Sequence record: MT446416.1
Origin: Escherichia virus TH47
Direction: 5' to 3' (one strand)
DNA length: 64,000 bases
Part shown: in pieces, positions 8,331 to 58,184 of the stretch
Numbering within the stretch: the stretch's first letter is position 1
Layout: the number at the start of each line of letters is the position of its first letter
Program-made: the position numbers and the translations under genes
Notes under the pieces: generated by a model
Told to the model about the DNA's origin: nothing
Database searches by the model: none
What the model saw: only the letters and a program-made list of their open reading frames with translations

Positions 8331-8380
8331 GTACTTTCTACAAATACTTTTAAAATAGTTTTCTTTCTATATAGGGGAAC

Positions 8381-8966: not shown

Positions 8967-9059
8967 GATTCCAGATTCAGAAAAATCTAACTCCAGATAC
9001 TGCGGGGAAACTATCCCCACGCGGTAGGGGAACTATTGGAAAAAACAAAATAAAATTTT

Positions 9060-9200
9060 GATTTAGCCGTCTATACTTCCAGACGTGTAACCATCTAGCC
9101 GTTTAGCCGTCCAAACGTCTAGCCATCCAGCCATCCAGAAATCTAGCCGTTTAGCCGTCTAGATGGATAGCCATCTTTACTTCCATACTTCTGGAGGTCT
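9060..9200. repeat. iteron cluster (TAGCCRTY x about 9) with CCAAAATCC repeats just downstream
   Basis: tagccgtc / tagccgtt / tagccatc units within about 130 bp, interleaved with tctaga-type palindromes. Confidence 0.8.
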
Positions 9201-10099: not shown

Positions 10100-10150
10100 G
10101 TGATTATAAATGATTACTTAAATGTTTATATATGATTACTTATGATTACT
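10100..10150. repeat. ATGATTACTTA direct repeats (3 copies)
   Basis: read directly. Confidence 0.7.
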
Positions 10151-10154
10151 TATG

Positions 10155-10175
10155 ACAAAGAGAAGCCAAAAGCTT
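10155..10175 (-). terminator. terminator of small-gene array
   Basis: hairpin GAGAAGC-nnnn-GCTTCTC followed by T-rich tract on minus strand. Confidence 0.5.
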
Positions 10176-10312
10176 CTCTGTAGAGTTACGGGGTTTAGCC
10201 TGGAGAGAATCCTAGTGATCGCATTTGTCCAGGCTGAATTTTAACAATTCGCCTGTACATAAAGGTTGTTCACTAGGAGCTTCCCCAGTCTCTATGTGCT
10301 CTATATGTTGAA

Positions 10313-10522
10313 TTACTTCCTATATATAAGTATTAACATATAGTAGTACTGATTATGCTGTACATTCTCTTTAATATTATAAGGGTCTATAGCAATCTCG
10401 GTACATCTGTTAAATGCATATCTATTAAATGCCAGTACTATTAGATTGTTAACCCATGCTTGTTCGTTTTCTTTTAGTTTACTTATATAGTACTCTTTAT
10501 ACTCTTTATACTCTTTATGCAT
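10313..10522 (-). CDS. small leader-family protein (69 aa)
   Basis: N-terminal MHKEYKEYKEYYISKL (9-bp unit repeated 3 times); C-terminal hydrophobic YxLILIY. Confidence 0.6.
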   Translation of the reverse strand: MHKEYKEYKEYYISKLKENEQAWVNNLIVLAFNRYAFNRCTEIAIDPYNIKENVQHNQYYYMLILIYRK

Positions 10523-10535
10523 AGTATTATCTCTA

Positions 10536-10718
10536 TTAATATGATAGTACTAGTGTTAGTACTGAGCACAATTGTTCTTTATAGTTCTTAGGGTATATAG
10601 AATCTTTTATGCACTCATTGAAGTGCCATAGGTATAATCTTGGGTCGCATTCTTTATATATTTTTACGGGGACGAATGTTAGTTTTCTTATATAGAAGTC
10701 TTTATGTTCTTTATTCAT
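10536..10718 (-). CDS. small leader-family protein (60 aa)
   Basis: MNKEHKDFYIRKL leader. Confidence 0.6.
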   Translation of the reverse strand: MNKEHKDFYIRKLTFVPVKIYKECDPRLYLWHFNECIKDSIYPKNYKEQLCSVLTLVLSY

Positions 10719-10920
10719 ATAGGAATAGTATACCTATGATGCCTGAGTACAGGTTAGTACTGTTATTATTGTCGTTTGCGTTTAAAGTCATTTGAATACA
10801 ATTATTGTAGCATAATCTGCCGAAATATGTATCAGTACTTAAAGGTGGTGTAGTTCTTAGAAACATTTGTTCTGATGTACTGAGGTGTTTGGAGTAGTAT
10901 TCTTTATGTTCTTTATTCAT
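10711..10920 (-). CDS. small leader-family protein (69 aa)
   Basis: MNKEHKEYYSKHL leader; body paralogous to 11285..11491 (CYNNCIQ...YSGIIGILFLYE). Confidence 0.65.
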   Translation of the reverse strand: MNKEHKEYYSKHLSTSEQMFLRTTPPLSTDTYFGRLCYNNCIQMTLNANDNNNSTNLYSGIIGILFLYE

Positions 10921-10925
10921 ATTAG

Positions 10926-11111
10926 TTAGTGTCTGTATATAAGTAATAGTAAGAATACGTACTGCACCTGTTCATCTTTAGTATTGAGTACTGTACGTAT
11001 TGCGTCATGGAACAAGAATATAGTACTTGGGTCATTAGAATTTAAGGGGTTTACGGGGACGGCGTGTTTGTAGTTCCCTTTAACAAATTGTATATAGTAT
11101 TCTTTATACAT
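10926..11111 (-). CDS. small leader-family protein (61 aa)
   Basis: MYKEYYIQFV leader. Confidence 0.6.
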   Translation of the reverse strand: MYKEYYIQFVKGNYKHAVPVNPLNSNDPSTIFLFHDAIRTVLNTKDEQVQYVFLLLLIYRH

Positions 11112-11112
11112 A

Positions 11113-11292
11113 TTAGTACCTGAATATTAGGGCGAGAATGTAGTACATATAATTTTGGTTCACAGCACAGTCAGTATGGTCAATGAATTGTTGGGTCTTT
11201 TTCTTATCCTTGAAATCTATTGGGTTTAGTAGTATAAGCATTTGGGAGTTTATATCCAGATGGCTTACGTAGAATTCTTTATAGTTATTCAT
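11113..11292 (-). CDS. small leader-family protein (59 aa)
   Basis: MNNYKEFYVSHL leader; ATGAATAA start/stop overlap with upstream gene; below ORF-track cutoff. Confidence 0.5.
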   Translation of the reverse strand: MNNYKEFYVSHLDINSQMLILLNPIDFKDKKKTQQFIDHTDCAVNQNYMYYILALIFRY

Positions 11293-11491
11293 AGAAGAAT
11301 ATTAGTCCTATTACACCTGAGTACATAATATTTTTGTTATTGTATTCTAATGCGTCTAGAGTACTACGTATACAATTATTAAAGCAATCTCTGGCGTGTT
11401 GTGTATCTAAACGTAAAGGTGATACACTCCTTAGAAACATTTGTTCTTCGTTGCTGAGGTATTTGGTGTAGAATTCTTTCTGTTCGTTCAT
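11285..11491 (-). CDS. small leader-family protein (68 aa)
   Basis: MNEQKEFYTKYL leader; CFNNCIR...YSGVIGLIFFYE. Confidence 0.65.
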   Translation of the reverse strand: MNEQKEFYTKYLSNEEQMFLRSVSPLRLDTQHARDCFNNCIRSTLDALEYNNKNIMYSGVIGLIFFYE

Positions 11492-11501
11492 ATTGGCCTC
11501 T

Positions 11502-11690
11502 TTAGTACACGAAAGCTAGGTACAGTACATGATACAGTACTTGATTATAGTTGTAATAATTTATCACGCATTTAGTGCACGTAATGAAGTAGTCTTTTTC
11601 GTAGTTTATTTCTATACCGCGAGGTTCATCTTCTAACAGATTACCTTGAAGGTGCGGTGGTAAATCTTTTATGTAGTATTCTTTATACAT
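11502..11690 (-). CDS. small leader-family protein (62 aa)
   Basis: conserved start MYKEYYIKDL at 11690; ORF-track N-terminal extension is read-through of the upstream copy. Confidence 0.55.
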   Translation of the reverse strand: MYKEYYIKDLPPHLQGNLLEDEPRGIEINYEKDYFITCTKCVINYYNYNQVLYHVLYLAFVY

Positions 11691-11691
11691 A

Positions 11692-11882
11692 TTAGTACCT
11701 GAATATAAGTAGGATAGTGTTATATAGTTGGTCATAACTACTACTATTTTCTATACTGCGTTCTATGCAGTTATTGAATCCCAGTACTGCCAAATCGTTA
11801 TCCAGGGGGGGACTTTATATCTGGCGTAGTATTCAAAAATGCTGGGGAGAAATTGTGTGTAGTATTCTTTGTGGTTGTTCAT
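11692..11882 (-). pseudogene. frameshifted leader-family member (poly-G7 tract 11805-11811)
   Basis: starts MNNHKEYYTQFL; frame breaks at the homopolymer; one extra C/G restores a 63-aa ORF ending ...GFNNCIERSIENSSSYDQLYNTILLIFRY. Confidence 0.5.
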
Positions 11883-11892
11883 ATTGTTCTCT

Positions 11893-12075
11893 TTAGTACT
11901 TATATATTAGGGCGAGGATGTAGTACAGTTTATATATTCTATCCTCGTACATTAGGGTGTACTTAGTACATTCTTGAAACATTGTTTTTGCGTCATCTTT
12001 TATGCCCAATGCAACGTTTGGTATATGGCTCTGTAGATGCATTGGAAGTTTCTCTATGTAGTATTCTTTATACAT
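11893..12075 (-). CDS. small leader-family protein (60 aa)
   Basis: conserved start MYKEYYIEKL at 12075 (ATGTATAA overlap with stop of 12068..12739). Confidence 0.55.
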   Translation of the reverse strand: MYKEYYIEKLPMHLQSHIPNVALGIKDDAKTMFQECTKYTLMYEDRIYKLYYILALIYKY

Positions 12076-12739
12076 AGTTTGAAATATACGTAATGAGGTG
12101 ATGAATTTTCTTATCAGTACTGATAAGTTCCTGTACATGTTTTGTTAGTTTGTACGCGTTTTTATAGAGTCCTGGATTATCGATTACAGTACTGTACATG
12201 AATTCTTCTTCTGGTGTTAATTCTTTGTTTTGTAGTTCTTTTAGGAATTGCAGTACTGTAATAGTTTCTTCTGTACGTTGCTGTTGGAAGAAATGCATGT
12301 TATCGTGTACTTTTTCTGAACCAATGCAGTACATATCGCCGATTTGGAATTGTGCTGTACGGATATCATGGGTGCTATTACAATTCCCGAAGAAGTATAC
12401 ATTCCCGAAAGATAGAATTATAGTGCACGGGATATTATCCAGGTGCATATAGATATAGATAGATGCGTCCTCTAGTGCTTTTGTGCTGGTATTAGTACTC
12501 AATACTTTTAAATCAGTATTATAGATATTCATATAATGAACAGCTATATTATTTTTCTTCATGTACAATTCAAGGTTCTTTGATACGTTAACTCCATTTG
12601 TACTGGTTTTTTTACTTTTCTTTAGGTTCTTTAGTACATTAGGGTGATAAGTATATGCATTAGTAATAGATTCAGCCTGGATGGATTGCAAGTACTTAAA
12701 GTGCTGTAGGTATCGTTTACTTTGTGGATTGAGTTTCAT
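12068..12739 (-). CDS. long leader-family protein (223 aa)
   Basis: N-terminal KRYLQHFKYL leader-like; C-terminal domain paralogous to 21657..22307. Confidence 0.6.
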   Translation of the reverse strand: MKLNPQSKRYLQHFKYLQSIQAESITNAYTYHPNVLKNLKKSKKTSTNGVNVSKNLELYMKKNNIAVHYMNIYNTDLKVLSTNTSTKALEDASIYIYMHLDNIPCTIILSFGNVYFFGNCNSTHDIRTAQFQIGDMYCIGSEKVHDNMHFFQQQRTEETITVLQFLKELQNKELTPEEEFMYSTVIDNPGLYKNAYKLTKHVQELISTDKKIHHLITYISNYV

Positions 12740-12750
12740 ATTGGTTTCCT

Positions 12751-12930
12751 TTATATAGATGCGAGTGCGAGGATTTCCCTGTAGGGATTATCTTGTGTTA
12801 GTGCGTGATGAATGCAGCTATTGAGATTAATATTTTTAGTACTGTTAGTTGCTAGGTTGTAGTACTTCACGAAGGTGTCGTACATGAAACGGTCTTTAAT
12901 GCTTATGTGTTCTATATAGTATTCTTGCAT
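12751..12930 (-). CDS. small leader-family protein (59 aa)
   Basis: conserved start MQEYYIEHI at 12930. Confidence 0.5.
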   Translation of the reverse strand: MQEYYIEHISIKDRFMYDTFVKYYNLATNSTKNINLNSCIHHALTQDNPYREILALASI

Positions 12931-12995
12931 ATTATTCCTTAGATTTAGATTAGTTTTAGTACTTCTCTGTACGTGTACTTTTCGTTTTGTGCTTC

Positions 12996-13118
12996 TACTG
13001 TACATGATAGAAAGTATCGTTTTTATCTCTTTTGTTCCCGACTGTGTAGTACCTTTGGAATTGATTATAAATGTATCTATCTTTGTGCTGAAGTTTATAG
13101 ATATAGAATTCTTGCATA
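12996..13118 (-). pseudogene. truncated leader-family copy
   Basis: MQEFYIYKL... ORF of 40 codons; flanking sequence duplicates 12921-12980. Confidence 0.35.
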
Positions 13119-13125
13119 GAGTACC

Positions 13126-13311
13126 TTAGATAGAGATTAGTTTTAGTACTTCAATATATGTGCGGTACTCTGCTTTAATTAAATTTGTACACACTGTAAG
13201 GGAACTTCTTTGTATAAGTTTATTGCCGCTTTTATACGCATTTCTCCACACATAGAGATGAGATCTTTCTGGCATAGATAGTTTATTTGTATAGTACTCA
13301 AATGTATTCAT
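13126..13311 (-). CDS. small leader-family protein (61 aa)
   Basis: start MNTFEYYTNKL at 13311. Confidence 0.5.
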   Translation of the reverse strand: MNTFEYYTNKLSMPERSHLYVWRNAYKSGNKLIQRSSLTVCTNLIKAEYRTYIEVLKLISI

Positions 13312-13321
13312 AGTATTCTCT

Positions 13322-13507
13322 TTACATATCAATAAGTTTCAGTACTGCTCTGTACGTGTACTTAGTTGTTAGTGTTTCTTTTATAGCAGTACAGAAGTAA
13401 TGTTGTTTGTCTCTAGTACTGACGCGTTTGTAGTACCATACATGGGAGTTGTGGCTGTACTTGTCCCTGTCGGATAGTTTTTGGTAATAGTAGCTTTTAT
13501 GATTCAT
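13322..13507 (-). CDS. small leader-family protein (61 aa)
   Basis: MNHKSYYYQKL leader. Confidence 0.55.
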   Translation of the reverse strand: MNHKSYYYQKLSDRDKYSHNSHVWYYKRVSTRDKQHYFCTAIKETLTTKYTYRAVLKLIDM

Positions 13508-13618
13508 TGTAATGTAATTAGCCTTATTATGTTAAAGTACTCGGTCCCTGGTACACCTTGTAGAATATTATCAACTACATTTATTTGGTGCAGGATGAGT
13601 ACATTCGGTGCGGATCTT

Positions 13619-13717
13619 TTAAGGTTTTTTTAAAGTACTGAATTCTTGTTTAAGGATGTTCTGCACATCTTTAGGGAGAATATCTAAGTAGTACTGATGA
13701 ATGTTCATAGTTTTCAT
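13619..13717 (-). pseudogene. truncated leader-family copy
   Basis: MKTMNIHQYYLDILPKD... stops after 32 codons; resembles N-terminus of 13916..14128. Confidence 0.35.
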
Positions 13718-13728
13718 ATAGTACTCTT

Positions 13729-13914
13729 TTAGAACTTAAAGATGAGGTTCATGATAGATAAGTACTTAGTTTCAGGAAATTGATGTTCTATTGCATAACG
13801 TGTCGCCAGTCTGAAGTCAAATTTATAAAAGGGAGTATTCATATCCAGAGGTTCATTGGGGAATGAATCTCGGTATTGCTTGTGCAGCTTACTACAGTAG
13901 AATTCTTTATACAT
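13729..13914 (-). CDS. small leader-family protein (61 aa)
   Basis: MYKEFYCSKL leader. Confidence 0.6.
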   Translation of the reverse strand: MYKEFYCSKLHKQYRDSFPNEPLDMNTPFYKFDFRLATRYAIEHQFPETKYLSIMNLIFKF

Positions 13915-13915
13915 A

Positions 13916-14128
13916 TTAGTGCTCGATTAATAGGGTAAGGATGTAATAGTATTGCATACTTTCTACCCCTTGTAAAGCATTTCTTATTTTATTATTCCTG
14001 TACGAGTTCAAGAGTTTAGGACAATGTTTGAGGTTTATATAATTATTTTGTGTATACAGTAGGCTTTCTCGTAGACCTTTTGTTGGTAGTGCATCGATGT
14101 AGTACTGTTCAATGTTCATAGTGTTCAT
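13916..14128 (-). CDS. small leader-family protein (70 aa)
   Basis: MNTMNIEQYYIDAL leader. Confidence 0.55.
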   Translation of the reverse strand: MNTMNIEQYYIDALPTKGLRESLLYTQNNYINLKHCPKLLNSYRNNKIRNALQGVESMQYYYILTLLIEH

Positions 14129-14352
14129 AGAGCTACCAGTACTAAGATTTTTGATAATTGTTTATTGCTATCCCCGCAGATGTTGCTGTGTAAAATACTC
14201 GCGGTGAGGGTATCAAGTGCACTGTTCAGCATAAGGTTACATCCAGTACTGTTATGTGTTTTTAGCTCTATCAGCCACGAACTATCCGCGAGAAACTTCG
14301 CGTACTCTAGTTCAGTTAGAGTATTGATGTAGTACTTAAGTGTAGTTGTCAT
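14125..14352 (-). CDS. small leader-family protein (75 aa), first gene of array
   Basis: MTTTLKYYINTL; AAGGAG RBS; promoter 14378-14406. Confidence 0.6.
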   Translation of the reverse strand: MTTTLKYYINTLTELEYAKFLADSSWLIELKTHNSTGCNLMLNSALDTLTASILHSNICGDSNKQLSKILVLVAL

Positions 14353-14377
14353 GTACAGTTCTCCTTATATTCCTTCT

Positions 14378-14406
14378 ATAGTACACCAGTACTGAAAGGA
14401 TGTCAA
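14378..14406 (-). promoter_or_regulatory. promoter of small-gene array
   Basis: TTGACA-N17-TACTAT on minus strand, divergent from the first RCC1-like gene promoter. Confidence 0.55.
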
Positions 14407-14410
14407 GGGT

Positions 14411-14450
14411 TTTGTTTATGGGGTAAATATGATATAATGAATAAAGGAGG
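14411..14450 (+). promoter_or_regulatory. promoter/RBS cassette of RCC1-like gene 1
   Basis: TTGTTT-N16-TATAAT then AAGGAGG 5 nt before ATG; same TATAAT-AAGGAGG cassette upstream of genes 3, 4 and 6. Confidence 0.5.
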
Positions 14451-14455
14451 GAAAT

Positions 14456-15577
14456 ATGTTACCTTTTGTTAGAATGTTTGATTATGGAAATGAAGCACCT
14501 GATCCTAGTTCGGGATTTCGAATAATAAGTACAGGAGACGCATTACTATTAATTACTGAGAGTGGTGATTTGTGGGTGCGTGGTTATAACCGTTATGGCA
14601 AGTTAGGTATAGGTAATAACACCACTACCTATGTACTTGATTGGACGAAGGTTAGAAGTGATGTGAAGTTTGCGTGTGGTAGTGGATTGGTAACAGTTAT
14701 CTTTACTAAGGATAATCGTATATTGTACTGTGGTGACAAATGGTTTGAAACGGGTGGTGTTGGTAGTGCACAGATTTTCACATGGACAGATGTTACGCAC
14801 CAATTTGGGGTAGTAGATTTGAGTACAGTAAGGGATATGAAAATGTCTTATTACACGATTGGATTATTGACTACTAATAATCAATTATACGCTAAGGGAT
14901 TTGATAATAACCTATCATTTGGTGGGGTTACTAATAAGGCGACTGCTGTGTTTATTGCGAATAATGTACAAGAGTTGTATACGAGTTTAGTTAGTACTAT
15001 CTACGTTGATACAAGTGGTATATTACATCGTTGTGGCATGAGTGATAACGGTTCGTTGGGTAATAATGGTAGTTTAACTTCGTATCTAAGTTATTCACAG
15101 CCTGGTATGACGATTAAGGACATTGGAATGATGACTACGAACACTGGGTTATTATATACTGATTCTAGTGCACGCACGAGATATTTTATTGCTGGACAGA
15201 ACTTGAATAAACAGATGGGTAATGCGGCGTCTGCGAGTGCCATTACGAGTACTTACACAGAGCTTTCTGGTAGTGTTGATAAGTTTTCTTCTTTATGGGA
15301 GAATGATGGGATATTGATGACATTTGCTGTGGGTAAGAACACTAATCAGTTATTTTATGCTGGGACGAATACTTTTCATGCGAGTGGTGGTGAATCTTCA
15401 TATGCGGATACATATGAGTTAGTCCCGATGGTGTTTAATGACATACAGGAAGTGTTATGTGCACAGCGTTTATCGGTGGTACATGATTCTACGAAGTGGT
15501 ATTACTGTGGTGATGCTAATTCAATGTATGGTTTACCGGACGTAAGTACTTTTACTGAGTTACCGTTGCCCTTTTAA
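14456..15577 (+). CDS. RCC1-like repeat (beta-propeller) protein, paralog 1
   Basis: 373 aa; leader MLPFVRMFDYGN; repeated G-x-N-x-x-G-x-LG-x-G blocks. Confidence 0.7.
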   Translation: MLPFVRMFDYGNEAPDPSSGFRIISTGDALLLITESGDLWVRGYNRYGKLGIGNNTTTYVLDWTKVRSDVKFACGSGLVTVIFTKDNRILYCGDKWFETGGVGSAQIFTWTDVTHQFGVVDLSTVRDMKMSYYTIGLLTTNNQLYAKGFDNNLSFGGVTNKATAVFIANNVQELYTSLVSTIYVDTSGILHRCGMSDNGSLGNNGSLTSYLSYSQPGMTIKDIGMMTTNTGLLYTDSSARTRYFIAGQNLNKQMGNAASASAITSTYTELSGSVDKFSSLWENDGILMTFAVGKNTNQLFYAGTNTFHASGGESSYADTYELVPMVFNDIQEVLCAQRLSVVHDSTKWYYCGDANSMYGLPDVSTFTELPLPF

Positions 15578-15585
15578 TAATAGGT

Positions 15586-15616
15586 CAGTACTGAAATATG
15601 TACTGGTATTTTTTGT
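15586..15616 (+). terminator. candidate terminator
   Basis: CAGTA...TACTG hairpin followed by T-run. Confidence 0.4.
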
Positions 15617-15654
15617 AAATACTATATAATTATTTTAATTTTGGAGATTTAATC

Positions 15655-16824
15655 ATGTTACCTTTTGTTAGAATGTTTGATTATGGGAATGTAGCACCTG
15701 CACCACCGAAATTTAAAAAAATACTCACCAATAACTACAACGTTGCAGTTTTAACAAGCAGTGGGGATTTATATGTACGTGGGAATAATCAAAACGGTCA
15801 ATTGGGTTTAGGTCACAAAGAAAAAGTTACTACATGGACGTTTAGTACTTCTGGTGTTCAAGATTTTTGGTTTGGTAGTTCAACACTAGTGGTTAAAAAA
15901 ACCGATGATGAAATATGGTACAGTGGACAGTCAACCTCTGTTGGTATGCCAGGGGCATCTGTATCGGGGTGGACTTCTGCCATGCCGACATTCAATACAT
16001 TAACATTACCAATATTAGATATGGCAGTTAGTAATCAGACTACAAGTGTATTACTATCAGACCGAACAATATGGAGTACTGGGGTAGGAAGTAATGGTCA
16101 ATTGGGTAATGGAACTGCGACGAACAACATTTCAGGTAAATTCGTCAAAAGTACTGTTTCGACAGAAGAAGAACAATTACCAGTTAAATTGTTTGCCAGT
16201 AATTTAATGCATGGATATGTTACCGAGAACGGCTGGTTATACTACACTGGGCAACCCAATGCAGTTAGCACTAATGGCAGTGCGGTATATAGTGTTTATA
16301 CTAGTGCTCCTATTAGTCTAAGGAATACCATTAATATCAAGTACTATACAAATAATGGAACTTCGATGGCGATGGCTATTGGTACAGATCCAAATGGTAA
16401 GACCGTACTTGCTAATGGTGGCCCTAGGATATTTGGTGCACAGGCTGACGGAGTAAATGGTCAACTAAGTAATATTAGGCCATTTGCTGTTCAAACCGAA
16501 TCATTGATGCCTCCTGGGGATTTGGTAAGTATTGCTCATAATACTTCATATTATAACCAAGTTATTGCTACAACAGATGGTATATATTGTTGCGGCTACA
16601 ACCAATCTACACACGCTGGTATGTTAGGCATTGGTACATCTACTAACGCATTAGTATATACCAAAGCAATCGTACCTGATGGTTTTGATTATAGTAAATC
16701 GCAAATGGCAGGTGAGTATAACCGTACTTATATAACTGATGGTAATTTTGTATATAGTACAGGGACAGATGTCACATATGGTGGCATTAATAGCTTAGAA
16801 TTTGTAATAGATTCACCATTATAA
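15655..16824 (+). CDS. RCC1-like repeat protein, paralog 2
   Basis: 389 aa; MLPFVRMFDYGN; NGQLGLG / NGQLGNG motifs. Confidence 0.75.
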   Translation: MLPFVRMFDYGNVAPAPPKFKKILTNNYNVAVLTSSGDLYVRGNNQNGQLGLGHKEKVTTWTFSTSGVQDFWFGSSTLVVKKTDDEIWYSGQSTSVGMPGASVSGWTSAMPTFNTLTLPILDMAVSNQTTSVLLSDRTIWSTGVGSNGQLGNGTATNNISGKFVKSTVSTEEEQLPVKLFASNLMHGYVTENGWLYYTGQPNAVSTNGSAVYSVYTSAPISLRNTINIKYYTNNGTSMAMAIGTDPNGKTVLANGGPRIFGAQADGVNGQLSNIRPFAVQTESLMPPGDLVSIAHNTSYYNQVIATTDGIYCCGYNQSTHAGMLGIGTSTNALVYTKAIVPDGFDYSKSQMAGEYNRTYITDGNFVYSTGTDVTYGGINSLEFVIDSPL

Positions 16825-16832
16825 AAAGAAAA

Positions 16833-16862
16833 GCCAGTACTTGATACTGGCTTTTCTTTTTG
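16833..16862 (+). terminator. rho-independent terminator
   Basis: GCCAGTACTTGATACTGGC hairpin + TTTTCTTTT. Confidence 0.65.
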
Positions 16863-16897
16863 TATTAAATATAGTATAATGAATAAAGGAGGGAATT

Positions 16898-18007
16898 ATG
16901 TTACCTTTTGTTAGAATGTTTGATTACGGGAATATTGCACCTGAAGCTCCAAAGATAAAGAAAGTACTGTGCGGTCGTGATAATTTGTACGTCCTCTATG
17001 GCGATGGCTCACTTTATGGTTGTGGGGATAATGCGTATTTTCAGTTAAACGTTAAAAATGCAGCAACAAGAAATACTTGGATATTAATTTCAGAAGGTGT
17101 TACTGATGTATGGGCTGGGGCGTACAATATTCTTTATCTCAAGGGTGAAGAATTCATAATGCATGGAGTTACCACACAATTAGGCACAGGAGATACTATG
17201 ATTCCGTTGGGTGGTTTGAATGTTACTTCTTCATTTCCACATATATCTAATATTAAAATGATATCAATTGGTGCAGATACAATGCACTACGTTGATGCTA
17301 GTGGTTCGATTGTTTATGGTAGAGGCATGAATGGTAACTATTCACTCGGTGGTGGGTATTCCACGGCTCAGAGTACTTTTGTTTCAGTTATTAATACCGG
17401 AGCTAATACAGTCCTTGATATATTGGGTACACAGAATAACACATTAATATTAACATCAAATGGTGAACTTCTCGGTTGTGGGAGTAGTGGGTATGGTTCA
17501 CTTGGCGTAAGTCCAGGACAGTATACTACACTAGTAAGCAGGTTAACCAGTGTTAAACTGTTTGGTGGTAACAGTACTGGTACTCTTGCTTATTCAGCCA
17601 GCAATATATACAACGCAGGTTGGCAGTATGTTGGTCAACTTGGTAACGGTATTACAACGAACACACTACTATATCCATTTGCATTAAACTCCACTACTAT
17701 TGATAGTAAGATACATAAAATATCAAAATCAAGTACAACTTCACGTGTTAATATGTACGCAACAACCGAAGGAAAGATATATAGTACTGGTGAATTTGGT
17801 AGAAATGGTTCTGGTGGTAGTTTGAGTAGATTCACCAATACACTAACTTTAGATAATTACAACCCAGAAAAATCAGCATTATACACATGTGCAAATTTTA
17901 GTATAGTATTTGATGGTAATAATCAAATTTATGCTTGTGGTTCTTTTTTGTATGTGCCAGGTCCTATTACCACGAACTCATGGTCTGCAATTACAATGCC
18001 GAAATGA
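16898..18007 (+). CDS. RCC1-like repeat protein, paralog 3
   Basis: 369 aa; MLPFVRMFDYGN; upstream TATAAT-AAGGAGG cassette. Confidence 0.7.
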   Translation: MLPFVRMFDYGNIAPEAPKIKKVLCGRDNLYVLYGDGSLYGCGDNAYFQLNVKNAATRNTWILISEGVTDVWAGAYNILYLKGEEFIMHGVTTQLGTGDTMIPLGGLNVTSSFPHISNIKMISIGADTMHYVDASGSIVYGRGMNGNYSLGGGYSTAQSTFVSVINTGANTVLDILGTQNNTLILTSNGELLGCGSSGYGSLGVSPGQYTTLVSRLTSVKLFGGNSTGTLAYSASNIYNAGWQYVGQLGNGITTNTLLYPFALNSTTIDSKIHKISKSSTTSRVNMYATTEGKIYSTGEFGRNGSGGSLSRFTNTLTLDNYNPEKSALYTCANFSIVFDGNNQIYACGSFLYVPGPITTNSWSAITMPK

Positions 18008-18021
18008 TACTATAAAACTAT

Positions 18022-18051
18022 GCCAGTACTTGATACTGGCTTTTCTTTTTG
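18022..18051 (+). terminator. rho-independent terminator
   Basis: same GCCAGTACTTGATACTGGC hairpin + T-run. Confidence 0.65.
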
Positions 18052-18085
18052 ATTAAATATAGTATAAAGAATAAAGGAGGGAATT

Positions 18086-19243
18086 ATGTTACCTTTTGCT
18101 AGAATGGTTAAGTACGGAAATAGAGTTCCAGTACCTGTTGGGATTAAGAAGATAAACTCTGTCGGTACTAGTCAGATGATATTGACGAATACAGGCGACG
18201 TGTATGCATATGGTCAAAACACCAACTGGAGATTTGGTAGTGGTAGTTCTAGTGAGATTAGTGGGGGAGTTCCACAGATGGTAATGCAGGGTGTATCGGA
18301 TATGATATGTCATCCCAGATGTACATTATTAATAATGTCTGATGGACGTTATCTTGCTGCTGGGAACTCTACAGTACTGGGAGGTAGTTCAGGATTGAAT
18401 TATGTAGATGTTAGTTCTAAGTTCGCTACATTAGGAACTATCAAGAAAATTGATTTTACCCGAAGGAACAGTACTTCGTATACAGTATATGCATTAAACA
18501 CTGATGGTGATTTATATGGTATTGGATATGGAAACCGTGGTCAATTGGGGTTAGGTAAAAATAATAGTTTAGGTGCATTTACGAAGATAAACACCAATTG
18601 CAGGAATTTTGTAAGTTGTTCTTATGAGACGATAGTGGCTCTTAAGAATGATAATACTGCGTGGTTCTGTGGAAATTATTCGTTTATTAGTGGTAATACT
18701 GATGTTACTACATTTACTAACCTTGGTGATACTGCAATACTTAATATCTACGGTAATGGTTTAAATGGTGAGTTGTTATACACAAAAAGTGATGGTTTAT
18801 ATTTCCGTGGTTTAGCGTCGAACCGATATGGTTATTCATTCAGTTTAGAACAGCGTGCAATTAATAGCAAGATTACATTGCCGTTTGCTTATGATGTAAG
18901 TACGTTTAAGATTCTCACAGATGAACAGACAACAACCGTCAGTGTGTGGATTTCCAATTCAGACGTTCATTATGGGGTTGGTGCAAATAGCAGTAACACT
19001 AACAGAATGGGATTCACCAACCCAACTATGCCAGGTGCTGGTTCAAACTTTACATTACAGGATTTCAGTTCAGTGCAGGGCACTATTGAGACTGTTGTTA
19101 GTGCAAGTTATTATACAACTCTTATAAACTCTAATGGGAAAGTATTTGGCAGTGGGCCTTTTGATGATGATTCTTTAACTTATTTTCCTGGGAATAATCC
19201 AAAACTGATGAACTACACAGAAATTAAATTGAATATAAATTAG
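18086..19243 (+). CDS. RCC1-like repeat protein, paralog 4
   Basis: 385 aa; MLPFARMVKYGN; NRGQLGLG. Confidence 0.7.
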   Translation: MLPFARMVKYGNRVPVPVGIKKINSVGTSQMILTNTGDVYAYGQNTNWRFGSGSSSEISGGVPQMVMQGVSDMICHPRCTLLIMSDGRYLAAGNSTVLGGSSGLNYVDVSSKFATLGTIKKIDFTRRNSTSYTVYALNTDGDLYGIGYGNRGQLGLGKNNSLGAFTKINTNCRNFVSCSYETIVALKNDNTAWFCGNYSFISGNTDVTTFTNLGDTAILNIYGNGLNGELLYTKSDGLYFRGLASNRYGYSFSLEQRAINSKITLPFAYDVSTFKILTDEQTTTVSVWISNSDVHYGVGANSSNTNRMGFTNPTMPGAGSNFTLQDFSSVQGTIETVVSASYYTTLINSNGKVFGSGPFDDDSLTYFPGNNPKLMNYTEIKLNIN

Positions 19244-19255
19244 GAGAGAATAATT

Positions 19256-20416
19256 ATGTTACCTTTTGCTAGAATGGTTAAGTACGGAAACATTGCACCA
19301 TCCCCTGCTGCCATTAAAAAATTAGTTACCGGATATAACTGGGTTATGGTATTGGGTAGTAATGGTAAATTATATACCCGTGGTGCCAATTCAAGTGGTC
19401 AGTTGGGTTTAGGAGACAATACAGCCAGAACATCATGGACATTAACTGCATCGGATGTCATTGATGTATGGTGTGGTCAGTATGCCACAATGATTCACAA
19501 ATCAGATGGTACATATCAATACACAGGGAAACAATACAATGTGTGTATGGGTACATCATCTGTTAATGCATGGACTTCTATGCAAACTCTTATTAATCAA
19601 GTTAATTCTCAAGGAACAATTACAGAAATATCACTAGGAAATAACTTCATTTCAATACTTATGAGTAATGGGACCATTTGGTGTGGTGGTTATAACACAG
19701 GAGGACAGCTTGGCAATGCTTCTTATTCTAACAGTTTTACTACATTAGTAAAATCAATTATACCAAGTGGTGCGGTTCCGAAAAGGATTATTGCAGGTAT
19801 AAACATGTGTTCATTTATTGCCGAAAGTGGTAGATTATATTACACAGGTGAAGTTAATGGTGATACTAACAGTACTTCAACCGTGAGTTTTTATAATGTA
19901 TTCACATTGTCAGATAGATTACCAGCAACTGTTAGTACTATAGCATTTATAAGTACTGTTAATGATATGGTGCAAGGTATTGCAAGAAACAAAAGCACGT
20001 CAGTTGTTTCAGTGTACACAGGTGGTGATCAATTATATGGACAGGCTGCTACTGGTACTGATACTACAACAAAAATATTGACAACTGTTGTGGCAAATCA
20101 ACCACAAGGAAATATATTAGATATAGGATATGGGTACGGATATTACTCTAACTTTGTTATTACTGACACAGGTGTATACGTTGCTGGTAATAACTCAGCG
20201 ACTTCATACTATGGACAATTAAGTACAGGTTCAACTACTAACGTATTAACTTACACTAAGTCTATTACTCCTGATTTAAATTTCAATGATGTTAAAATCC
20301 AAAGTTGCTATGGTAAAACATATATGACAGATGGAAACAAAATATATTCAAGTGGTACTAACCTAGTATCTGGTGGTACTGCTAGTACTATATTTGTTGA
20401 AGATTCACCAATTTAA
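19256..20416 (+). CDS. RCC1-like repeat protein, paralog 5
   Basis: 386 aa; MLPFARMVKYGN; 12-nt spacer from paralog 4 (co-transcribed). Confidence 0.75.
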   Translation: MLPFARMVKYGNIAPSPAAIKKLVTGYNWVMVLGSNGKLYTRGANSSGQLGLGDNTARTSWTLTASDVIDVWCGQYATMIHKSDGTYQYTGKQYNVCMGTSSVNAWTSMQTLINQVNSQGTITEISLGNNFISILMSNGTIWCGGYNTGGQLGNASYSNSFTTLVKSIIPSGAVPKRIIAGINMCSFIAESGRLYYTGEVNGDTNSTSTVSFYNVFTLSDRLPATVSTIAFISTVNDMVQGIARNKSTSVVSVYTGGDQLYGQAATGTDTTTKILTTVVANQPQGNILDIGYGYGYYSNFVITDTGVYVAGNNSATSYYGQLSTGSTTNVLTYTKSITPDLNFNDVKIQSCYGKTYMTDGNKIYSSGTNLVSGGTASTIFVEDSPI

Positions 20417-20423
20417 AATAATG

Positions 20424-20452
20424 CCAGTACTCTGTACTGGTATTCTTATTTG
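20424..20452 (+). terminator. rho-independent terminator
   Basis: CCAGTACTCTGTACTGG hairpin + T-rich tract. Confidence 0.55.
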
Positions 20453-20486
20453 TATTAAATATAGTATAATGAATAAAGGAGGAATT

Positions 20487-21623
20487 ATGTTACCTTTTGC
20501 AAGAATGGTTAAGTACGGGAATATAAAAGTAAAGAGTACTATCCAAAAAGTTATCCTTGGTGGTGGTGGTCAATGTGTGGTAACATTACTCAGTGATGGT
20601 AGAGTGTATGGACGTGGTTACAACACTACACATGGGTTAGGTACTGGTACAACAACATTCGTAAGTGATTGGGTATTAATGGGCGATAATATTGTTGATA
20701 TCCATTCAAATGGTGTTCCTGGCACATTCCTTATCACCAAAGAAAATAGAATTTTGTATTCTGGTTGGGCGACACCAATCAATGGTACAACTGCACATTA
20801 TACACGTTTCACTGATTTAACATCAACTGTATTTGCTGCGGTGGATGTTAGTAATATTAAAACAATTACTGGAAATATTAATGCTACAATGGTCCTGTTG
20901 AATGATGGTTCTCTTTATGGTAGTGGTGCAAATACAGGTGTTATTGGTAATGGTAGAAATGTTGCATTATCAACACAAACATATGTAACTAATGATGTGA
21001 GAGAAGTAAAAACATATGGATCCATGACTACTATAACAAAAAATAACAATCAAATACTGGGTAGTGGTCTTTTATACCACGGCGTGAACGGTACAAATTC
21101 AATAATAAACACGTCTTCATATACATTACTGTACACATTACCGAGTTCTGATTGTTTTCAATTTGCATTTGATGAATATACATTTGGATATGTTGACCCT
21201 AGCACTAATACTTCTTATATAAGAGGTATACCAATAAATGGTTCATTGGGTAATGGTGTTACTAATAATACAGCAGTTACAACATGGGTTACTAAAGTTT
21301 GGAATACACCAATTGATAGTTCTATACCTAATAAATCACATACACTTAACCATGTCTCCTTGTTCAATGATGGAAACTTATGGACAACTGGTGCATCTAA
21401 TGTCGGTTATTCCAATGGTACAAATAGCACAACAGCTAATACTTGGACCAGTTCATCTAATTTACCATTCAACACCAATAACATCACAGACTATGCGTTG
21501 GGTAGTAATATTACTGTGGTGGTAATCGACTACAGGTCTATGTACATACTAGCTAACAACTTAATTGCTGGAACTACATCAACCACTTACAAATTTGAGC
21601 CATATAATTCTCCACCAGTTTAA
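20487..21623 (+). CDS. RCC1-like repeat protein, paralog 6
   Basis: conserved start MLPFARMVKYGN at 20487 after AAGGAGG; ORF-track extension to 20373 rejected. Confidence 0.7.
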   Translation: MLPFARMVKYGNIKVKSTIQKVILGGGGQCVVTLLSDGRVYGRGYNTTHGLGTGTTTFVSDWVLMGDNIVDIHSNGVPGTFLITKENRILYSGWATPINGTTAHYTRFTDLTSTVFAAVDVSNIKTITGNINATMVLLNDGSLYGSGANTGVIGNGRNVALSTQTYVTNDVREVKTYGSMTTITKNNNQILGSGLLYHGVNGTNSIINTSSYTLLYTLPSSDCFQFAFDEYTFGYVDPSTNTSYIRGIPINGSLGNGVTNNTAVTTWVTKVWNTPIDSSIPNKSHTLNHVSLFNDGNLWTTGASNVGYSNGTNSTTANTWTSSSNLPFNTNNITDYALGSNITVVVIDYRSMYILANNLIAGTTSTTYKFEPYNSPPV

Positions 21624-21629
21624 TATAAT

Positions 21630-21658
21630 GCCAGTACTTGAGTACTGGCTTTTCTTTT
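21630..21658. terminator. bidirectional terminator
   Basis: GCCAGTACTTGAGTACTGGC hairpin flanked by T-run, between convergent genes. Confidence 0.6.
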
Positions 21659-22307
21659 ACATATTATATAATGTGAATGCAGTCACTTTACCAGTTGTTG
21701 TTAGTTCATTATAAAGATACTCCAAGATTCTCGCACACTCTAAGTATATCTCGATATCATCATGAATAAGTGAGTACTGGAATAGCTGTTCTTCAGATAA
21801 TTTGTATTGACTCCCTCTTAATGAATTGAGAATATCTTTCACATCATCAAGTACTGGGTAAAGTACGAAATCTTCATCATATTTTGAAGCAATAAATTCA
21901 AATCCACCACCATCAGTACTAGATATACCAATCAGTACTTTATCAATCAAGTTAATGTTTATATAACGGTTGTGATTTGGGTGAATTGAAATCTCAAACA
22001 TACGAGTACTGTTACAATCAACATCAATATACAAATATACATCATTGAATTTATAAGTTAAGCAACCATACTCAATGTAATCAGAGCAAATAATTGATGA
22101 ATTTTTTCTCGTCTCTGCGTAATGCATATTGATATTCTTTTTACGCATAAGTAATTCGAACTTTGCACTAAACTTACCACCAGTAAGATAATTAGTATTA
22201 GGACGTTTGTAACTGGCAACTGGCCTATGGGATGATGAAAAGTATCTTTTTGTGAATCGTTTCTGTTTAGTGAAATATTCTTGATAGAACTTATTTCTTT
22301 TATTCAT
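21657..22307 (-). CDS. long leader-family protein (216 aa)
   Basis: start MNKRNKFYQEYF at 22307 with GAGG RBS; C-terminal domain paralogous to 12068..12739 and FQYS family. Confidence 0.6.
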   Translation of the reverse strand: MNKRNKFYQEYFTKQKRFTKRYFSSSHRPVASYKRPNTNYLTGGKFSAKFELLMRKKNINMHYAETRKNSSIICSDYIEYGCLTYKFNDVYLYIDVDCNSTRMFEISIHPNHNRYININLIDKVLIGISSTDGGGFEFIASKYDEDFVLYPVLDDVKDILNSLRGSQYKLSEEQLFQYSLIHDDIEIYLECARILEYLYNELTTTGKVTAFTLYNM

Positions 22308-22385
22308 GAGTGCCTCAATTAAATTGCTGTAAAATTGTACGTTATAAAATGAGTAAATAAAGTATAACACAAGGAGATTTTTATT

Positions 22386-23510
22386 ATGTTACCTTTCGTA
22401 TTGTTATTTGATTATGGGAACGAAAAACAAGAAAGTTCTTATGATGTTAGTGTATATGGAAACAATAACTACATTTTAAATAAACAAACTGGAAACCTTT
22501 TTGCATCTGGTGCTGCGGCATTTATGGGTGATAACACCGTTAAGTATTATATTACCCAAATCGAATCAAATGTTCATAGCTGTGAGATAGGCTTCCTATC
22601 ATCATGGATAATTAAGAAGGACAAAACTGTTTTCATTTTAGGAAACAAAAGTTCAATTGGTCTAACCGATTCGACCACATCATGGTTTGAAATTACAAAT
22701 TTATTTTCTGCTGTTCCTGAAATATGGGACAACCTATTTGAATGTAAAGTTCAATTGGGATATAACTGCATACGTGTTATGACACCACTAGGTTCAATCT
22801 ATGCGATTGGCACAAACACTTATGGTGCATTGGGTACTGGTACTACATCCTCATCAACTTCGTTCGTTAAAAGTGGTGCTGTGGATGCTGTACGCATGGA
22901 ATCAACTGAACGTTCAGTTTTCTATCAAAACAGTTCTGGAAAATGGTTTGGATGTGGTGATAACACATATGGTATACTAGGTCTAGGAACTACCGCCAGT
23001 CGTGTAAACTCATACACCGCACCAGTATGGACTAATGCAGAAGCTGTTAGCTTCTCTAACCGTGGTATCATATACAGCCTCAATGGTACTCTATACTCAT
23101 GTGGTGACAAAGTTAATGGTCAGCTAGGGGATGGATATACACAAAGCATAGACGCTGCCAGGAGCACACCATACACCATAGGAACCGCATTCCAAATTGG
23201 TAAGGCAATAACATCAGCTACACAAGCATCAGCCAACGTATTCATTGGTAAAGATAATAAGTTCTATGGTACTGGTAGTATTGCTGCTGGTATAAATGGT
23301 AGTGCTAGTGCTACATTAAGTAAAGTTACTGCGTTATCAGCATCACTACCACCTGACATTACATACAATGATATTATAACATTTAATACAGGGACCGTAA
23401 CTTTTATTCAAGCAAAAGGACAACTATATTATGTTGGTAGAAGAACTTACATAGATAATAGTTCAGACGTTACCACACAGTTCAGTTTAATTGGTGGCTT
23501 AGATAATTAA
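22386..23510 (+). CDS. RCC1-like repeat protein, paralog 7
   Basis: 374 aa; MLPFVLLFDYGN; YGALGTG / YGILGLG / NGQLGDG. Confidence 0.7.
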   Translation: MLPFVLLFDYGNEKQESSYDVSVYGNNNYILNKQTGNLFASGAAAFMGDNTVKYYITQIESNVHSCEIGFLSSWIIKKDKTVFILGNKSSIGLTDSTTSWFEITNLFSAVPEIWDNLFECKVQLGYNCIRVMTPLGSIYAIGTNTYGALGTGTTSSSTSFVKSGAVDAVRMESTERSVFYQNSSGKWFGCGDNTYGILGLGTTASRVNSYTAPVWTNAEAVSFSNRGIIYSLNGTLYSCGDKVNGQLGDGYTQSIDAARSTPYTIGTAFQIGKAITSATQASANVFIGKDNKFYGTGSIAAGINGSASATLSKVTALSASLPPDITYNDIITFNTGTVTFIQAKGQLYYVGRRTYIDNSSDVTTQFSLIGGLDN

Positions 23511-23517
23511 AATTAAT

Positions 23518-23548
23518 CCAGTACTATAATAGTACTGGATTTTTTATT
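23518..23548. terminator. bidirectional terminator
   Basis: CCAGTACTATAATAGTACTGG hairpin + T6. Confidence 0.6.
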
Positions 23549-23918
23549 ATAACATACGTTTTTTACGAATAGTATTGTGGATATTTTTTAAGTAGTTCAC
23601 ACCTTTACACAACCCATAAAATACACCAGCACATACACCAAATACAGGTATCATACATGCAAACATCGTTATCAATTCCCACATCTCCATGCCATCTTGA
23701 TTCGGTCCAAGGTCAAAGATAACAACCGAAACCAAACCTGTGATACTTAGCATATAATATGCCATGAAGATAAAAAAAGAAACAATACCAACATCAGAGC
23801 GAACTGAATTTAGCATATTATATACTGGGGTTACACAGAAGTAATACAATAACCAAACCAAAGAGCCTAAACTAAACACAATAATAGTAATGATCGAAAA
23901 TATTTCACGATAACTCAT
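23547..23918 (-). CDS. small polytopic membrane protein, family member 1
   Basis: 123 aa, 3-4 hydrophobic helices, basic C-terminal tail. Confidence 0.6.
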   Translation of the reverse strand: MSYREIFSIITIIVFSLGSLVWLLYYFCVTPVYNMLNSVRSDVGIVSFFIFMAYYMLSITGLVSVVIFDLGPNQDGMEMWELITMFACMIPVFGVCAGVFYGLCKGVNYLKNIHNTIRKKRML

Positions 23919-23919
23919 T

Positions 23920-24282: not shown

Positions 24283-24283
24283 G

Positions 24284-57026: not shown

Positions 57027-58184
57027 ATGTCAAGATCGATTGCTGCTGCTGGACGATATAAGTTCGGTGAATGTGGATATGTAGTCGATGGTGCAATTCT
57101 CAACGATGGGACTAAACTCAAAAATGTTCGAATCTATCGTCATAGAAGCCATAGATTATATGATTTACTTGATCCTGTAAGTAATGTAATTTATCGTAAA
57201 GTACAAATTACAACAAAGGATATACAAGGATATCAATTAAACTACAACAAAACTAATGATCAAATCCTAAGTGAAATAAGAAAGAACTCTTTTTTCGTAA
57301 GAGGATACTCAGATGCTAAACTTGAATCAGATCCTACTGGGTTTGTTTATAAGTTTCTTTTGCACAAAACAATTCTAGGTAGTTCACAAACACTATATAA
57401 TATGTACACCCCTGAATGCGGGATTATAGATAGAGATATAGACAACATCCTTATGTTCCCAACGTTCGTAGGTGATGATTTGGTAGGTGGTCGCCTATTC
57501 AACGCAGGTTCAGCCATTGATACAACTGGAATGCGTATTACCGTTATACTTCCTGACGGAACCGAGTACTTCACAACTGAAATAATTGATGATGTTTTTA
57601 GTATTCCAGTTGATCCAATTACTCAATCCGGTAAAGGAACCATCATACTCACTTCTGACATATATAATACCAAAACTATTGAATTTGATATACTAGAAAG
57701 CGGCGAAGATATTGACTTCGTTACTTCAGTACTTCTATCTCAGTTTGAGTACACGTCCGATGGTATGTACATGGCAACTGTACCAGCTACTGTGCATGAG
57801 CGTGGTGAGTATCTTGCTCTACAAGCATACAGTGGTGATTTATTCCAAATTGGAGTAGACCTCATTGTAGATCCTAGCGGTAATATTACTGTGTACCAAA
57901 CTGATGATGCTCCAATCTCATTGAGTATTATTGGTAAAACCTTACACACCACTCCATATCACAACACGTATACTGATAGTGATTGGGTAGTTGATGGTGA
58001 TTCTATGTACACACTGTCCATTCCTGCCAGTGAACATGGTAAAATCCTCCCACAAGTTCAAGTCTATGCTGAAGACAATCACGTTGTACTAAGTGAAGTT
58101 GAACTAGATGCCGATGATAATGTTGTATTAAAAGTTGTTGAACCATTTGGCTGTACTGTAGTCATTGTTGGTTATAACGCATAA
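57027..58184 (+). CDS. hypothetical protein (385 aa), plus-strand
   Basis: GGAGGG RBS; ends at bidirectional terminator. Confidence 0.65.
   Translation: MSRSIAAAGRYKFGECGYVVDGAILNDGTKLKNVRIYRHRSHRLYDLLDPVSNVIYRKVQITTKDIQGYQLNYNKTNDQILSEIRKNSFFVRGYSDAKLESDPTGFVYKFLLHKTILGSSQTLYNMYTPECGIIDRDIDNILMFPTFVGDDLVGGRLFNAGSAIDTTGMRITVILPDGTEYFTTEIIDDVFSIPVDPITQSGKGTIILTSDIYNTKTIEFDILESGEDIDFVTSVLLSQFEYTSDGMYMATVPATVHERGEYLALQAYSGDLFQIGVDLIVDPSGNITVYQTDDAPISLSIIGKTLHTTPYHNTYTDSDWVVDGDSMYTLSIPASEHGKILPQVQVYAEDNHVVLSEVELDADDNVVLKVVEPFGCTVVIVGYNA

Follow-up and report, generated by a model that had tools for sequence, protein, structure and literature searches.

The seven RCC1-like proteins encoded by open reading frames (ORFs) R1 to R7 of Escherichia virus TH47 (accession MT446416.1) begin with a common 12-residue peptide, the tag, which we read as a retained N-terminal docking tag on late accessory virion proteins, with a probability of about 0.6. 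The ORFs lie on the plus strand at 14456-23510 of the analyzed stretch of 64,000 nucleotides (the window), which comes from a jumbo coliphage of the genus Asteriusvirus (PBECO4/121Q/phAPEC6 group). They diverge from an array of small minus-strand ORFs (10313-14352) across an intergenic hub of 103 bp (14353..14455), and the layout that an earlier note had described from the DNA letters is borne out by the ORF map. The same note proposed that both arrays carry N-terminal leaders that could target their products to the virion and that, as in T4, might be removed there by the prohead protease, and it saw both arrays as possible pools of injected effectors.

The tag of the RCC1-like proteins

R1 (14456..15577, 373 aa), R2 (15655..16824, 389 aa) and R3 (16898..18007, 369 aa) carry the tag MLPFVRMFDYGN, R4 (18086..19243, 385 aa), R5 (19256..20416, 386 aa) and R6 (20487..21623, 378 aa from the ATG at 20487) carry MLPFARMVKYGN, and R7 (22386..23510, 374 aa) has a divergent form, MLPFVLLFDYGN. 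The Pfam families RCC1, RCC1_2 and WD40_RLD were matched by all seven of these large plus-strand proteins. The ORF listed for R6 from a GTG at 20373 is an over-extension, positions 20373-20486 being in-frame upstream sequence. Database entries (P0004, P0010 and JP4_581) show that such over-extended starts are often called for these genes and mask the true MLPF start.

In the alignment of the seven copies, mean pairwise identity was 0.81 in columns 1-12 and 0.21 elsewhere, the next-best 12-column window reached 0.41, and overall identity was 21-26%. That the N-terminus is far more conserved than the rest of the protein therefore holds for the RCC1 family; for the small-gene family the same claim was overstated, since other conserved blocks are present and the motif lies in helix 1. 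The consensus of the window copies is MLPF[VA]RM[FV][DK]YGN, with M1, L2, P3, F4, Y10, G11 and N12 invariant in 7/7 copies, and a short proline-rich linker (e.g. xAPxP) follows the tag in many copies. A degenerate DNA pattern for the tag matched exactly the seven RCC1 starts, and gave no match in 100 shuffles. Among 40 distinct tag-encoding DNA sequences from eight sources, four codons were used for Pro3, three for Gly11, and two each for Phe4, Arg6, Tyr10 and Asn12, while the residues were fixed. Because the residues stay constant while synonymous codons vary, selection acts on the tag at the protein level.

An AlphaFold2 model of R2 (23 sequences) gave a single-chain, seven-bladed propeller with a mean predicted local distance difference test score (pLDDT) of 90.4 and a predicted template modeling score of 0.88. 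Foldseek matched the fold to UVR8, HERC2 and RCC1 (E ~1e-20), and a profile search against the PDB gave 1.5e-54; no phage structure was among the matches to the RCC1-like fold in either search. A protein homology search with R2 listed 23 matches, and domains for secretion or surface anchoring were present in the cellular proteins nearest to it (a type IX secretion system sorting domain in P0021, Listeria-Bacteroides repeats in P0022), and the cellular RCC1-like homologs P0021-P0023 have no tag.

In RCC1-type propellers the ring is closed by N- and C-terminal strands, so that residues 1-12 might be considered a structural element of the propeller itself, for example a 'velcro' strand that closes the last blade. 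This explanation was rejected and is given hardly any weight. In the R2 model the first propeller strand comprises residues 20-25, and the fold does not include residues 1-10, which are modeled as a short helix (pLDDT 52); moreover, the same peptide is found on proteins with non-propeller folds, and it is missing from the cellular homologs.

Expression signals and the 5' cassette

All of the RCC1-like genes except R5 are self-contained units consisting of a terminator hairpin, a late motif, a ribosome-binding site and the tag. The hairpin, CCAGTACT..AGTACTGG with a T-run, comes first, followed by TAAATAnnnTATAA(T) about 32 nt before the ATG and then by AAAGGAGG. The hairpin after R2 (CCAGTACT..ATACTGG and T-run) lies at 16834..16850 on the plus strand, and equivalent hairpins were found at 15584-15607, 18023-18039, 20424-20440, 21631-21648 and 23518-23538. 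The late-promoter-like motif TAAATAnnnTATAA precedes R2 at 15616..15629 (plus strand), and it is also found before R1, R3, R4, R6 and R7 (14424, 16866, 18054, 20456 and 22354, respectively). Of its seven occurrences in the window, six precede RCC1-like genes and one precedes an ORF at 57027-58184. R5 starts 12 nt past R4 and has no terminator/promoter cassette of its own.

In the hub, the plus strand carries a TAAATA core (14424-14429), TATAAT and the ribosome-binding site AAAGGAGGG before R1. The minus strand carries a sigma70-like promoter (TTGACA-17-TACTAT, 14406 to 14378) facing the small-gene operon. Judged by these signals, the two arrays share a hub and are predicted to belong to separate regulons.

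The related phage phAPEC6 has TAAATA 31-32 nt before the ATG of its tagged genes. For promoter counts, its assembled whole genome and the 62 virion proteins of its published proteome were used. Of the 54 virion genes outside the RCC1 group, 29 have TAAATA at a distance of 15-75 nt upstream, among them the genes for the sheath, the scaffold and the major capsid protein (TATAAATA). Across the genome this hexamer is 3.5-fold depleted (230 sites vs ~809 expected), and 36 of the 230 sites fall within the virion-gene upstream windows, which make up about 0.5% of the sequence. ATAAATA also stands before structural genes of the related phages CBB and GAP32, and was likened to the T4 late promoter by the authors of the CBB study (PMC5259590). 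Since the late-type TAAATA core precedes structural genes and phAPEC6 encodes a gp55-like late sigma factor, we infer that the RCC1-like array is expressed late.

Identity between the units reaches upstream from the tag through the ribosome-binding site, the promoter and the terminator, and the N-terminal conservation could thus be a by-product of a DNA cassette, maintained by gene conversion, duplication or the needs of translation initiation, with a peptide that has no function. Comparison of orthologs also speaks for exchange of the cassette. R2 and its phAPEC6 ortholog gp003 are 92% identical, yet 4 of their first 13 residues differ (VRMFDYGNV vs GRMIKYGNI; window 15655-15693 vs L004 4823-4861), and the orthologs P0009, P0013 and phAPEC6-2434 have a common body with three tag variants. 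Tags are homogenized within one genome, and the variants, as far as the sequences tell, track the genome and not the gene. Different tags on orthologs of 92% identity indicate concerted evolution of the 5' cassette, and the distribution of variants by genome is compatible with exchange through a conserved cassette, with joint adaptation to one partner, or with a combination of the two. That the peptide itself is functionless is nevertheless very improbable. Its invariant residues persist through synonymous changes, and they are kept across genera with different upstream DNA (CBB, Serratia BF and Hallingskeid). Operonic genes that lack a cassette (R5, and many genes of Hallingskeid and CBB) have equally conserved tags.

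The tag on other proteins and in related phages

Across genera the tag takes the form M-[LI]-P-F-x-[RI]-[MIL]-x-x-[YF]-[GA]-N, with 7 copies in the window, 13 in phAPEC6, 9 in CBB and 10 in the Erwinia phage Hallingskeid locus. In phAPEC6 it heads 15 ORFs (13 unique), all of them in one array, and one of these ORFs (7325-8059, 244 aa) encodes a glycine-rich protein (phrog_4474) behind the same cassette, in a frame that is unannotated in the record. The nine tagged genes of CBB encode Kelch proteins (550, 552 and 554), Laminin_G_3 proteins (548 and 551), phrog_6011 proteins (549 and 553) and SP19_190-like proteins (536 and 537). Hallingskeid has eight tagged RCC1 genes and a tagged Kelch propeller, CDS0073 (Pfam E 6.5e-30). 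GAP32_001 is a tagged RCC1 protein, and GAP32_002, BF_0548 of Serratia phage BF and Hallingskeid CDS0082 are tagged members of phrog_6011 ('virion structural protein') with weak similarity to Laminin_G_3/ConA-like domains. The phrog_6011 body occurs with another N-terminus in 150-kb rV5-like phages, e.g. gp182 of 4MG, which starts MEEMLLVGGG. A scan of IMG/VR with the back-translated tag yielded one contig with nine copies, all on RCC1-like or glycine-rich proteins. By sequence comparison, the tag is a clade-specific module that has been grafted onto at least five unrelated bodies in at least four genera.

In the phAPEC6 record (MK817115, L004), the tagged ORFs 2434-3543, 6063-7253 and 7325-8059 are unannotated, and the annotated gp004 (7716-8018) is another frame within the glycine-rich tagged ORF of 244 aa. 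If the database of the published mass spectrometry (MS) search lacked these three ORFs, their products could not have been detected by it. It was also found that the start of this record repeats its end (L004 3 and 1218 vs L001 350178 and 351393), with gp550 and gp551 duplicated, which suggests that the sequence was deposited with its terminal redundancy.

Occurrence of tagged proteins in virions

The virion proteome of phAPEC6 contains gp003, 005, 006, 007, 009, 010, 549 and 551, i.e. eight of its ten annotated tagged proteins (PMC7247149, Table 1), among them the orthologs of R2 (gp003) and R3 (gp009, 75% identity). In the CBB virion proteome, seven of nine tagged proteins were detected, by as many as 8 peptides and at coverages of up to 51% (PMC5259590). 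The enrichment of tagged proteins in virions was significant in both phages (hypergeometric, p=6e-7 for phAPEC6 and p=2e-6 for CBB). The virion list of JP4 (PMC12648861), for which the proteome data are protein-level, has three MLPF-containing entries, of which JP4_581 and JP4_577 were read as RCC1-like, with one peptide each.

Virion detection might also be carry-over of proteins whose tag has an intracellular role, such as binding of a phage chaperone, recognition by Clp/ClpS or localization. Non-structural proteins on the phAPEC6 virion list would agree with this, as would the ClpP and Clp ATPase that these phages encode, together with a ClpS-like adaptor in CBB. The tag begins with Met-Leu, and leucine would be an N-degron if Met1 were removed, which lends the idea speculative support. 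Such a role is improbable, given the strong and reproducible enrichment in three independent proteomes from two genera, the coverage attained in CBB, and the fact that most other late or abundant non-structural proteins were undetected.

Retention of the tag

The peptide report for CBB (supplementary file 6, PMC5259590) lists three fully tryptic peptides that originate within the tag. These are LFEYANVIIPPNYK, residues 7-20 of CBB_536 and preceded by R; YANVIVEYATK, residues 10-20 of CBB_548; and LLQYGNK, residues 7-13 of CBB_553. From their detection it follows that the second half of the tag is kept in mature CBB virions, and the tag (residues 7 onward, in CBB) is thus retained, unlike the cleaved capsid targeting sequence (CTS) of T4.

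The prohead proteases of T4 and of giant phages all cut after Glu, and the T4 CTS is removed. No conserved Glu or (L/I)-x-E was present within about 30 residues of the N-terminus in the RCC1 alignment, R2 and R4 having no Glu in at least the first 38 residues, and a conserved Glu or (L/I)xE site was likewise not found in the small family. The proposed removal of the leaders by a prohead protease is contradicted by the tag-internal peptides in purified CBB virions and by the missing Glu site. For the processed, leaderless forms that the earlier note had suggested looking for in virions, the published proteomes of relatives give a divided answer: the proteins are present in the particles, and part of the leader is intact in CBB. 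The T4 leader was given correctly in the note as MKTYQEF (translated internal proteins IPII and IPIII of T4 both start MKTYQEFIAE), while the supposed likeness of MYKEYYI, from the small proteins, to this leader is superficial, being one of composition without the IAE site. The tag MLPFVRMFDYGN has nothing in common with MKTYQEFIAE beyond Met1.

A T4-style CTS is accordingly considered unlikely. On this explanation the tag would bind the scaffolding core, and the proteins would enter the inner body of the head, be cut by a gp21-like protease and be ejected as effectors. The architecture does parallel the internal-protein loci of T-even phages, in which diverse proteins share an N-terminus of about 10 residues (PMC3012670). 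In addition, the capsid of phAPEC6 contains an inner body, the phage encodes a gp21-like protease (gp227c), and its virions include RCC1-like proteins, which the phAPEC6 authors regarded as inner-body candidates (PMC7247149). Besides the retained peptides, the absent cleavage site and the dissimilar sequence, the properties of the proteins speak against it: their isoelectric points (4.9-9.2) are unlike those of DNA-binding proteins, lectin and propeller bodies are typical of surface modules, and a low charge with a composition rich in S, T, N and G is the opposite of scaffold and core proteins, although this last argument is weak against cargo inside the head.

Proposed docking and probable location on the virion

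A retained docking tag is the best explanation, because the tag is kept in the particle, is independent of fold and is common to many virion-associated heads. In the mechanism that we propose, the plus-strand array would supply late accessory virion proteins, each with a globular, binding-type domain (here a seven-bladed RCC1-like propeller). The amphipathic, fold-independent 12-mer would insert into one common site on a virion component, and a single socket could in this way receive many different heads. Terminator, late promoter, ribosome-binding site and tag, conserved together as a cassette, would serve as a fixed 5' joint for recombination, which would explain both the turnover of the heads and the tag variants that track the genome.

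We lean slightly towards external display of the heads, for which the hair-like appendages of phAPEC6 and CBB would be one possible site. Tagged proteins (n=63) have 12% charged residues and 41% S/T/N/G, resembling the tail fiber gp256 (10% and 49%), and are the opposite of the scaffold proteins gp226c and gp228c (32% and 43% charged). The binding-type folds, and the secretion or surface domains of the nearest cellular homologs, also count for the outside. Both phAPEC6 and CBB bear unexplained hairs, and four of the six CBB genes that the authors named as hair candidates are tagged (PMC5259590). An internal location, possibly with ejection, is the less probable placement, with some weight left for other arrangements; it would be in keeping with the capsid inner body of phAPEC6, for which the authors proposed the RCC1-like proteins (PMC7247149).

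Several points weigh against the docking interpretation. The virion proteomes are all from relatives and none is from this phage, the phAPEC6 list includes non-structural proteins (topoisomerase, UvsX, single-stranded DNA-binding protein and thymidylate synthase), the RCC1-like proteins are represented by few peptides (1-5), and abundant late proteins could co-purify. Residues 1-6 (MLPFxR) were not seen by MS in CBB, as expected for a 6-mer of this size, and a few N-terminal residues could formally have been trimmed. The conformation of the tag in the AlphaFold2 model has low confidence, and the choice between external and internal placement rests on composition and analogy. No T4gp10-like domain was detected by Pfam in phAPEC6 gp244, 245, 247, 248, 253, 256, 314c or 323c, such domains usually needing profile-profile or structural methods, and the PDB searches revealed no such protein in any solved virion structure. 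The phrog_6011 body, 4MG gp182 and gp314c likewise had no match when searched by sequence against the PDB.

The C-terminal 180 residues of phAPEC6 gp256 (L007 39072-44597) match 9cuy/9mjn, a 'putative tail fiber protein' (E 4e-30), and this solved structure may be informative for the fiber apparatus of the clade.

Arrays of this type are named 'regulator of chromosome condensation' or 'DNA condensation protein' in dozens of jumbo-phage genomes; these GenBank names are name transfers, for which no support was found here. The shared and retained tag reclassifies the RCC1, Kelch, LamG-like and glycine-rich neighbors as one class of tag-mounted virion proteins, and makes them candidates to account for either the hair-like appendages or the inner body of the capsid, both of them open observations in the clade. 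As a fixed recombination joint, the tag would account for the extreme gene turnover at the locus. It also exposes unannotated or mis-framed genes in reference records and, if sufficient by itself, would offer a 12-residue handle for decorating jumbo-phage particles with foreign proteins or loading them.

The small-gene array

The small-gene array (10313..14352, minus strand) consists of about 15 abutting or overlapping genes for all-alpha proteins of 59-75 aa. A full-length profile match to phrog_11711 was obtained for four of seven small proteins tested (E 6e-10 to 4e-20), and the divergent copies align to these. By tblastn, phrog_11711 was found in Escherichia and Salmonella jumbo phages only; the family had no Pfam match, and Foldseek against the PDB gave no fold match. 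In the alignment of 14 copies KEYYIxxL is the most conserved part (0.48-0.49 in 8-column windows, compared with 0.07-0.24 in the middle of the protein), with further conservation in a C-terminal YxxILxLI helix (0.33) and a central FxxC patch. The AlphaFold2 model of a small protein (pLDDT 82.7) is a compact five-helix fold with the KEYYI motif in helix 1 (pLDDT 81-90). Because it is integral to this helix, the motif is not a detachable leader, and on the model the N-terminal conservation of the small family reflects the protein core and not a targeting signal.

The TAAATA late motif was not found before the small genes. The small proteins gp540c-548c are absent from the phAPEC6 virion list, and the JP4 list contains no protein of the small family. 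Given a promoter of the sigma70 type, genes packed as in an operon and products missing from two virion lists, we read the array as an early-type sigma70 operon that is rapidly diversifying and unrelated to the tag system; its products are probably host-takeover or anti-defense factors. The suggestion that both arrays are virion-targeted is consequently upheld for the RCC1-like array, with its modular tag, late core and relatives detected in particles (8/10 in phAPEC6, 7/9 in CBB), and finds no support for the small array, on the grounds of its promoter type, the integral helix and the two virion lists.

Locus variability and neighboring genes

Megablast of positions 10000-24000 against GenBank phages matched only jumbo phages of the PBECO4/121Q/phAPEC6/G17 group (coliphages and Salmonella phages; Asteriusvirus, 320-386 kb). 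The closest match had 95% identity over just 36% of the query, and no record reached 80% coverage; this sparse coverage indicates that the locus is hypervariable within the genus.

Nearly all genes of the window are on the minus strand, the exceptions being the seven RCC1-like genes and the ORF at 57027..58184. The latter is preceded by the late motif TAAATAnnnTATAA at 56990-57003 and has no tag, and its product is 75% identical to phAPEC6 gp077 (phrog_10468), a virion protein with 10 peptides. Two minus-strand ORFs, one inside each array, are weak paralogs (22% identity, E 5e-4): 12068..12739 (223 aa, phrog_29152) within the small-gene array and 21657..22370 (237 aa, phrog_34359), antisense between R6 and R7. 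Directly after the RCC1-like array, the minus strand of 23547-25986 carries seven abutting paralogous genes for hydrophobic proteins of about 104-123 aa, which are syntenic with CBB_539-546, annotated 'putative membrane protein'. The minus-strand ORF 51281-52246 matches in position and length phAPEC6 gp066c, annotated as an RpoD-like sigma-70 factor, and is a candidate for a second phage sigma factor beside the gp55-like one.

The palindrome AGTACT occurs 228 times in the window, compared with 21.7 expected from base composition, most densely at about 6000-14000; the count for phAPEC6 is 918. Between the RCC1-like genes, the terminator hairpins have stems made of this palindrome, which is also frequent within the small genes.

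Comparison with known systems

N-terminal peptides for virion targeting or docking are already known, and what is new here is the sequence, its distribution in the clade, the range of cargo folds and the uncleaved state. Term searches of the phAPEC6 (PMC7247149) and CBB (PMC5259590) papers found no mention of a common N-terminus, both papers listing the proteins as structural. Searches with the tag strings found no relevant paper in the searchable literature, and the Sharanji and PA5oct papers contain nothing on RCC1 or late promoters.

Eukaryotic RCC1 proteins and RCC1-like domains (UVR8, the RCC1-like domain of HERC2, RPGR) are alike in the seven-bladed propeller and the repeat signature. 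They differ in their Ran guanine nucleotide exchange and chromatin function, for which there is no evidence in the phage proteins, whose net charge is near neutral.

The T4 CTS (IPI, IPII, IPIII and Alt) is similar in that diverse proteins from a variable locus have only a short N-terminal peptide in common (10 residues in T4, 12 here), that the proteins reach the virion, and that expression signals for each gene favor exchange of cassettes. It differs in being cut after Glu by gp21, which leaves the cargo free inside the head, whereas the tag has neither a Glu site nor sequence similarity to it. The T4 internal proteins are small and basic, while the bodies described here are propellers or lectin-like domains of 22-43 kDa with a fiber-like composition. 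In the inner-body and ejection proteins of phiKZ and SPN3US, paralogs also keep identical N-termini (gp53 and gp54 of SPN3US have 15 identical N-terminal residues at 34% overall identity), and their propeptides have been proposed to target the prohead. Those propeptides, however, usually have at least 100 residues and A/S-x-E sites, are removed, and belong to an unrelated lineage.

Short conserved N-terminal peptides, down to 7 residues, attach secondary receptor-binding proteins in branched systems, including those of the related jumbo phages PhiK64-1 and RaK2 (PMC6872550), and attachment through an N-terminal docking peptide has been validated experimentally (PMC13352976). These systems (K1-5/SP6, KP32/KP34, Menlow and PhiK64-1/RaK2) resemble the present one in their uncleaved, group-specific peptides of 7 to about 20 residues and in their interchangeable heads, several per genome. 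Their cargos are trimeric tailspikes or fibers with depolymerase domains, carried on T4gp10-like branching domains; the cargos here are RCC1 and Kelch propellers, ConA/LamG-like domains and glycine-rich domains, with no beta-helix or fiber fold among the predicted tagged bodies (propeller, Kelch, ConA-like), and docking to the tail would be an analogy. More tentatively, and at less than even odds, the tag may be a universal, uncleaved 'plug' of the Rak2-like jumbo phages (Asteriusvirus, Mimasvirus, Eneladusvirus and relatives) that fits one socket, perhaps on the hair-like appendages, for a swappable display of lectin and propeller adhesins. If so, the display of monomeric modules would be distinct both from T4 CTS packaging and from the branching of trimeric tail fibers.

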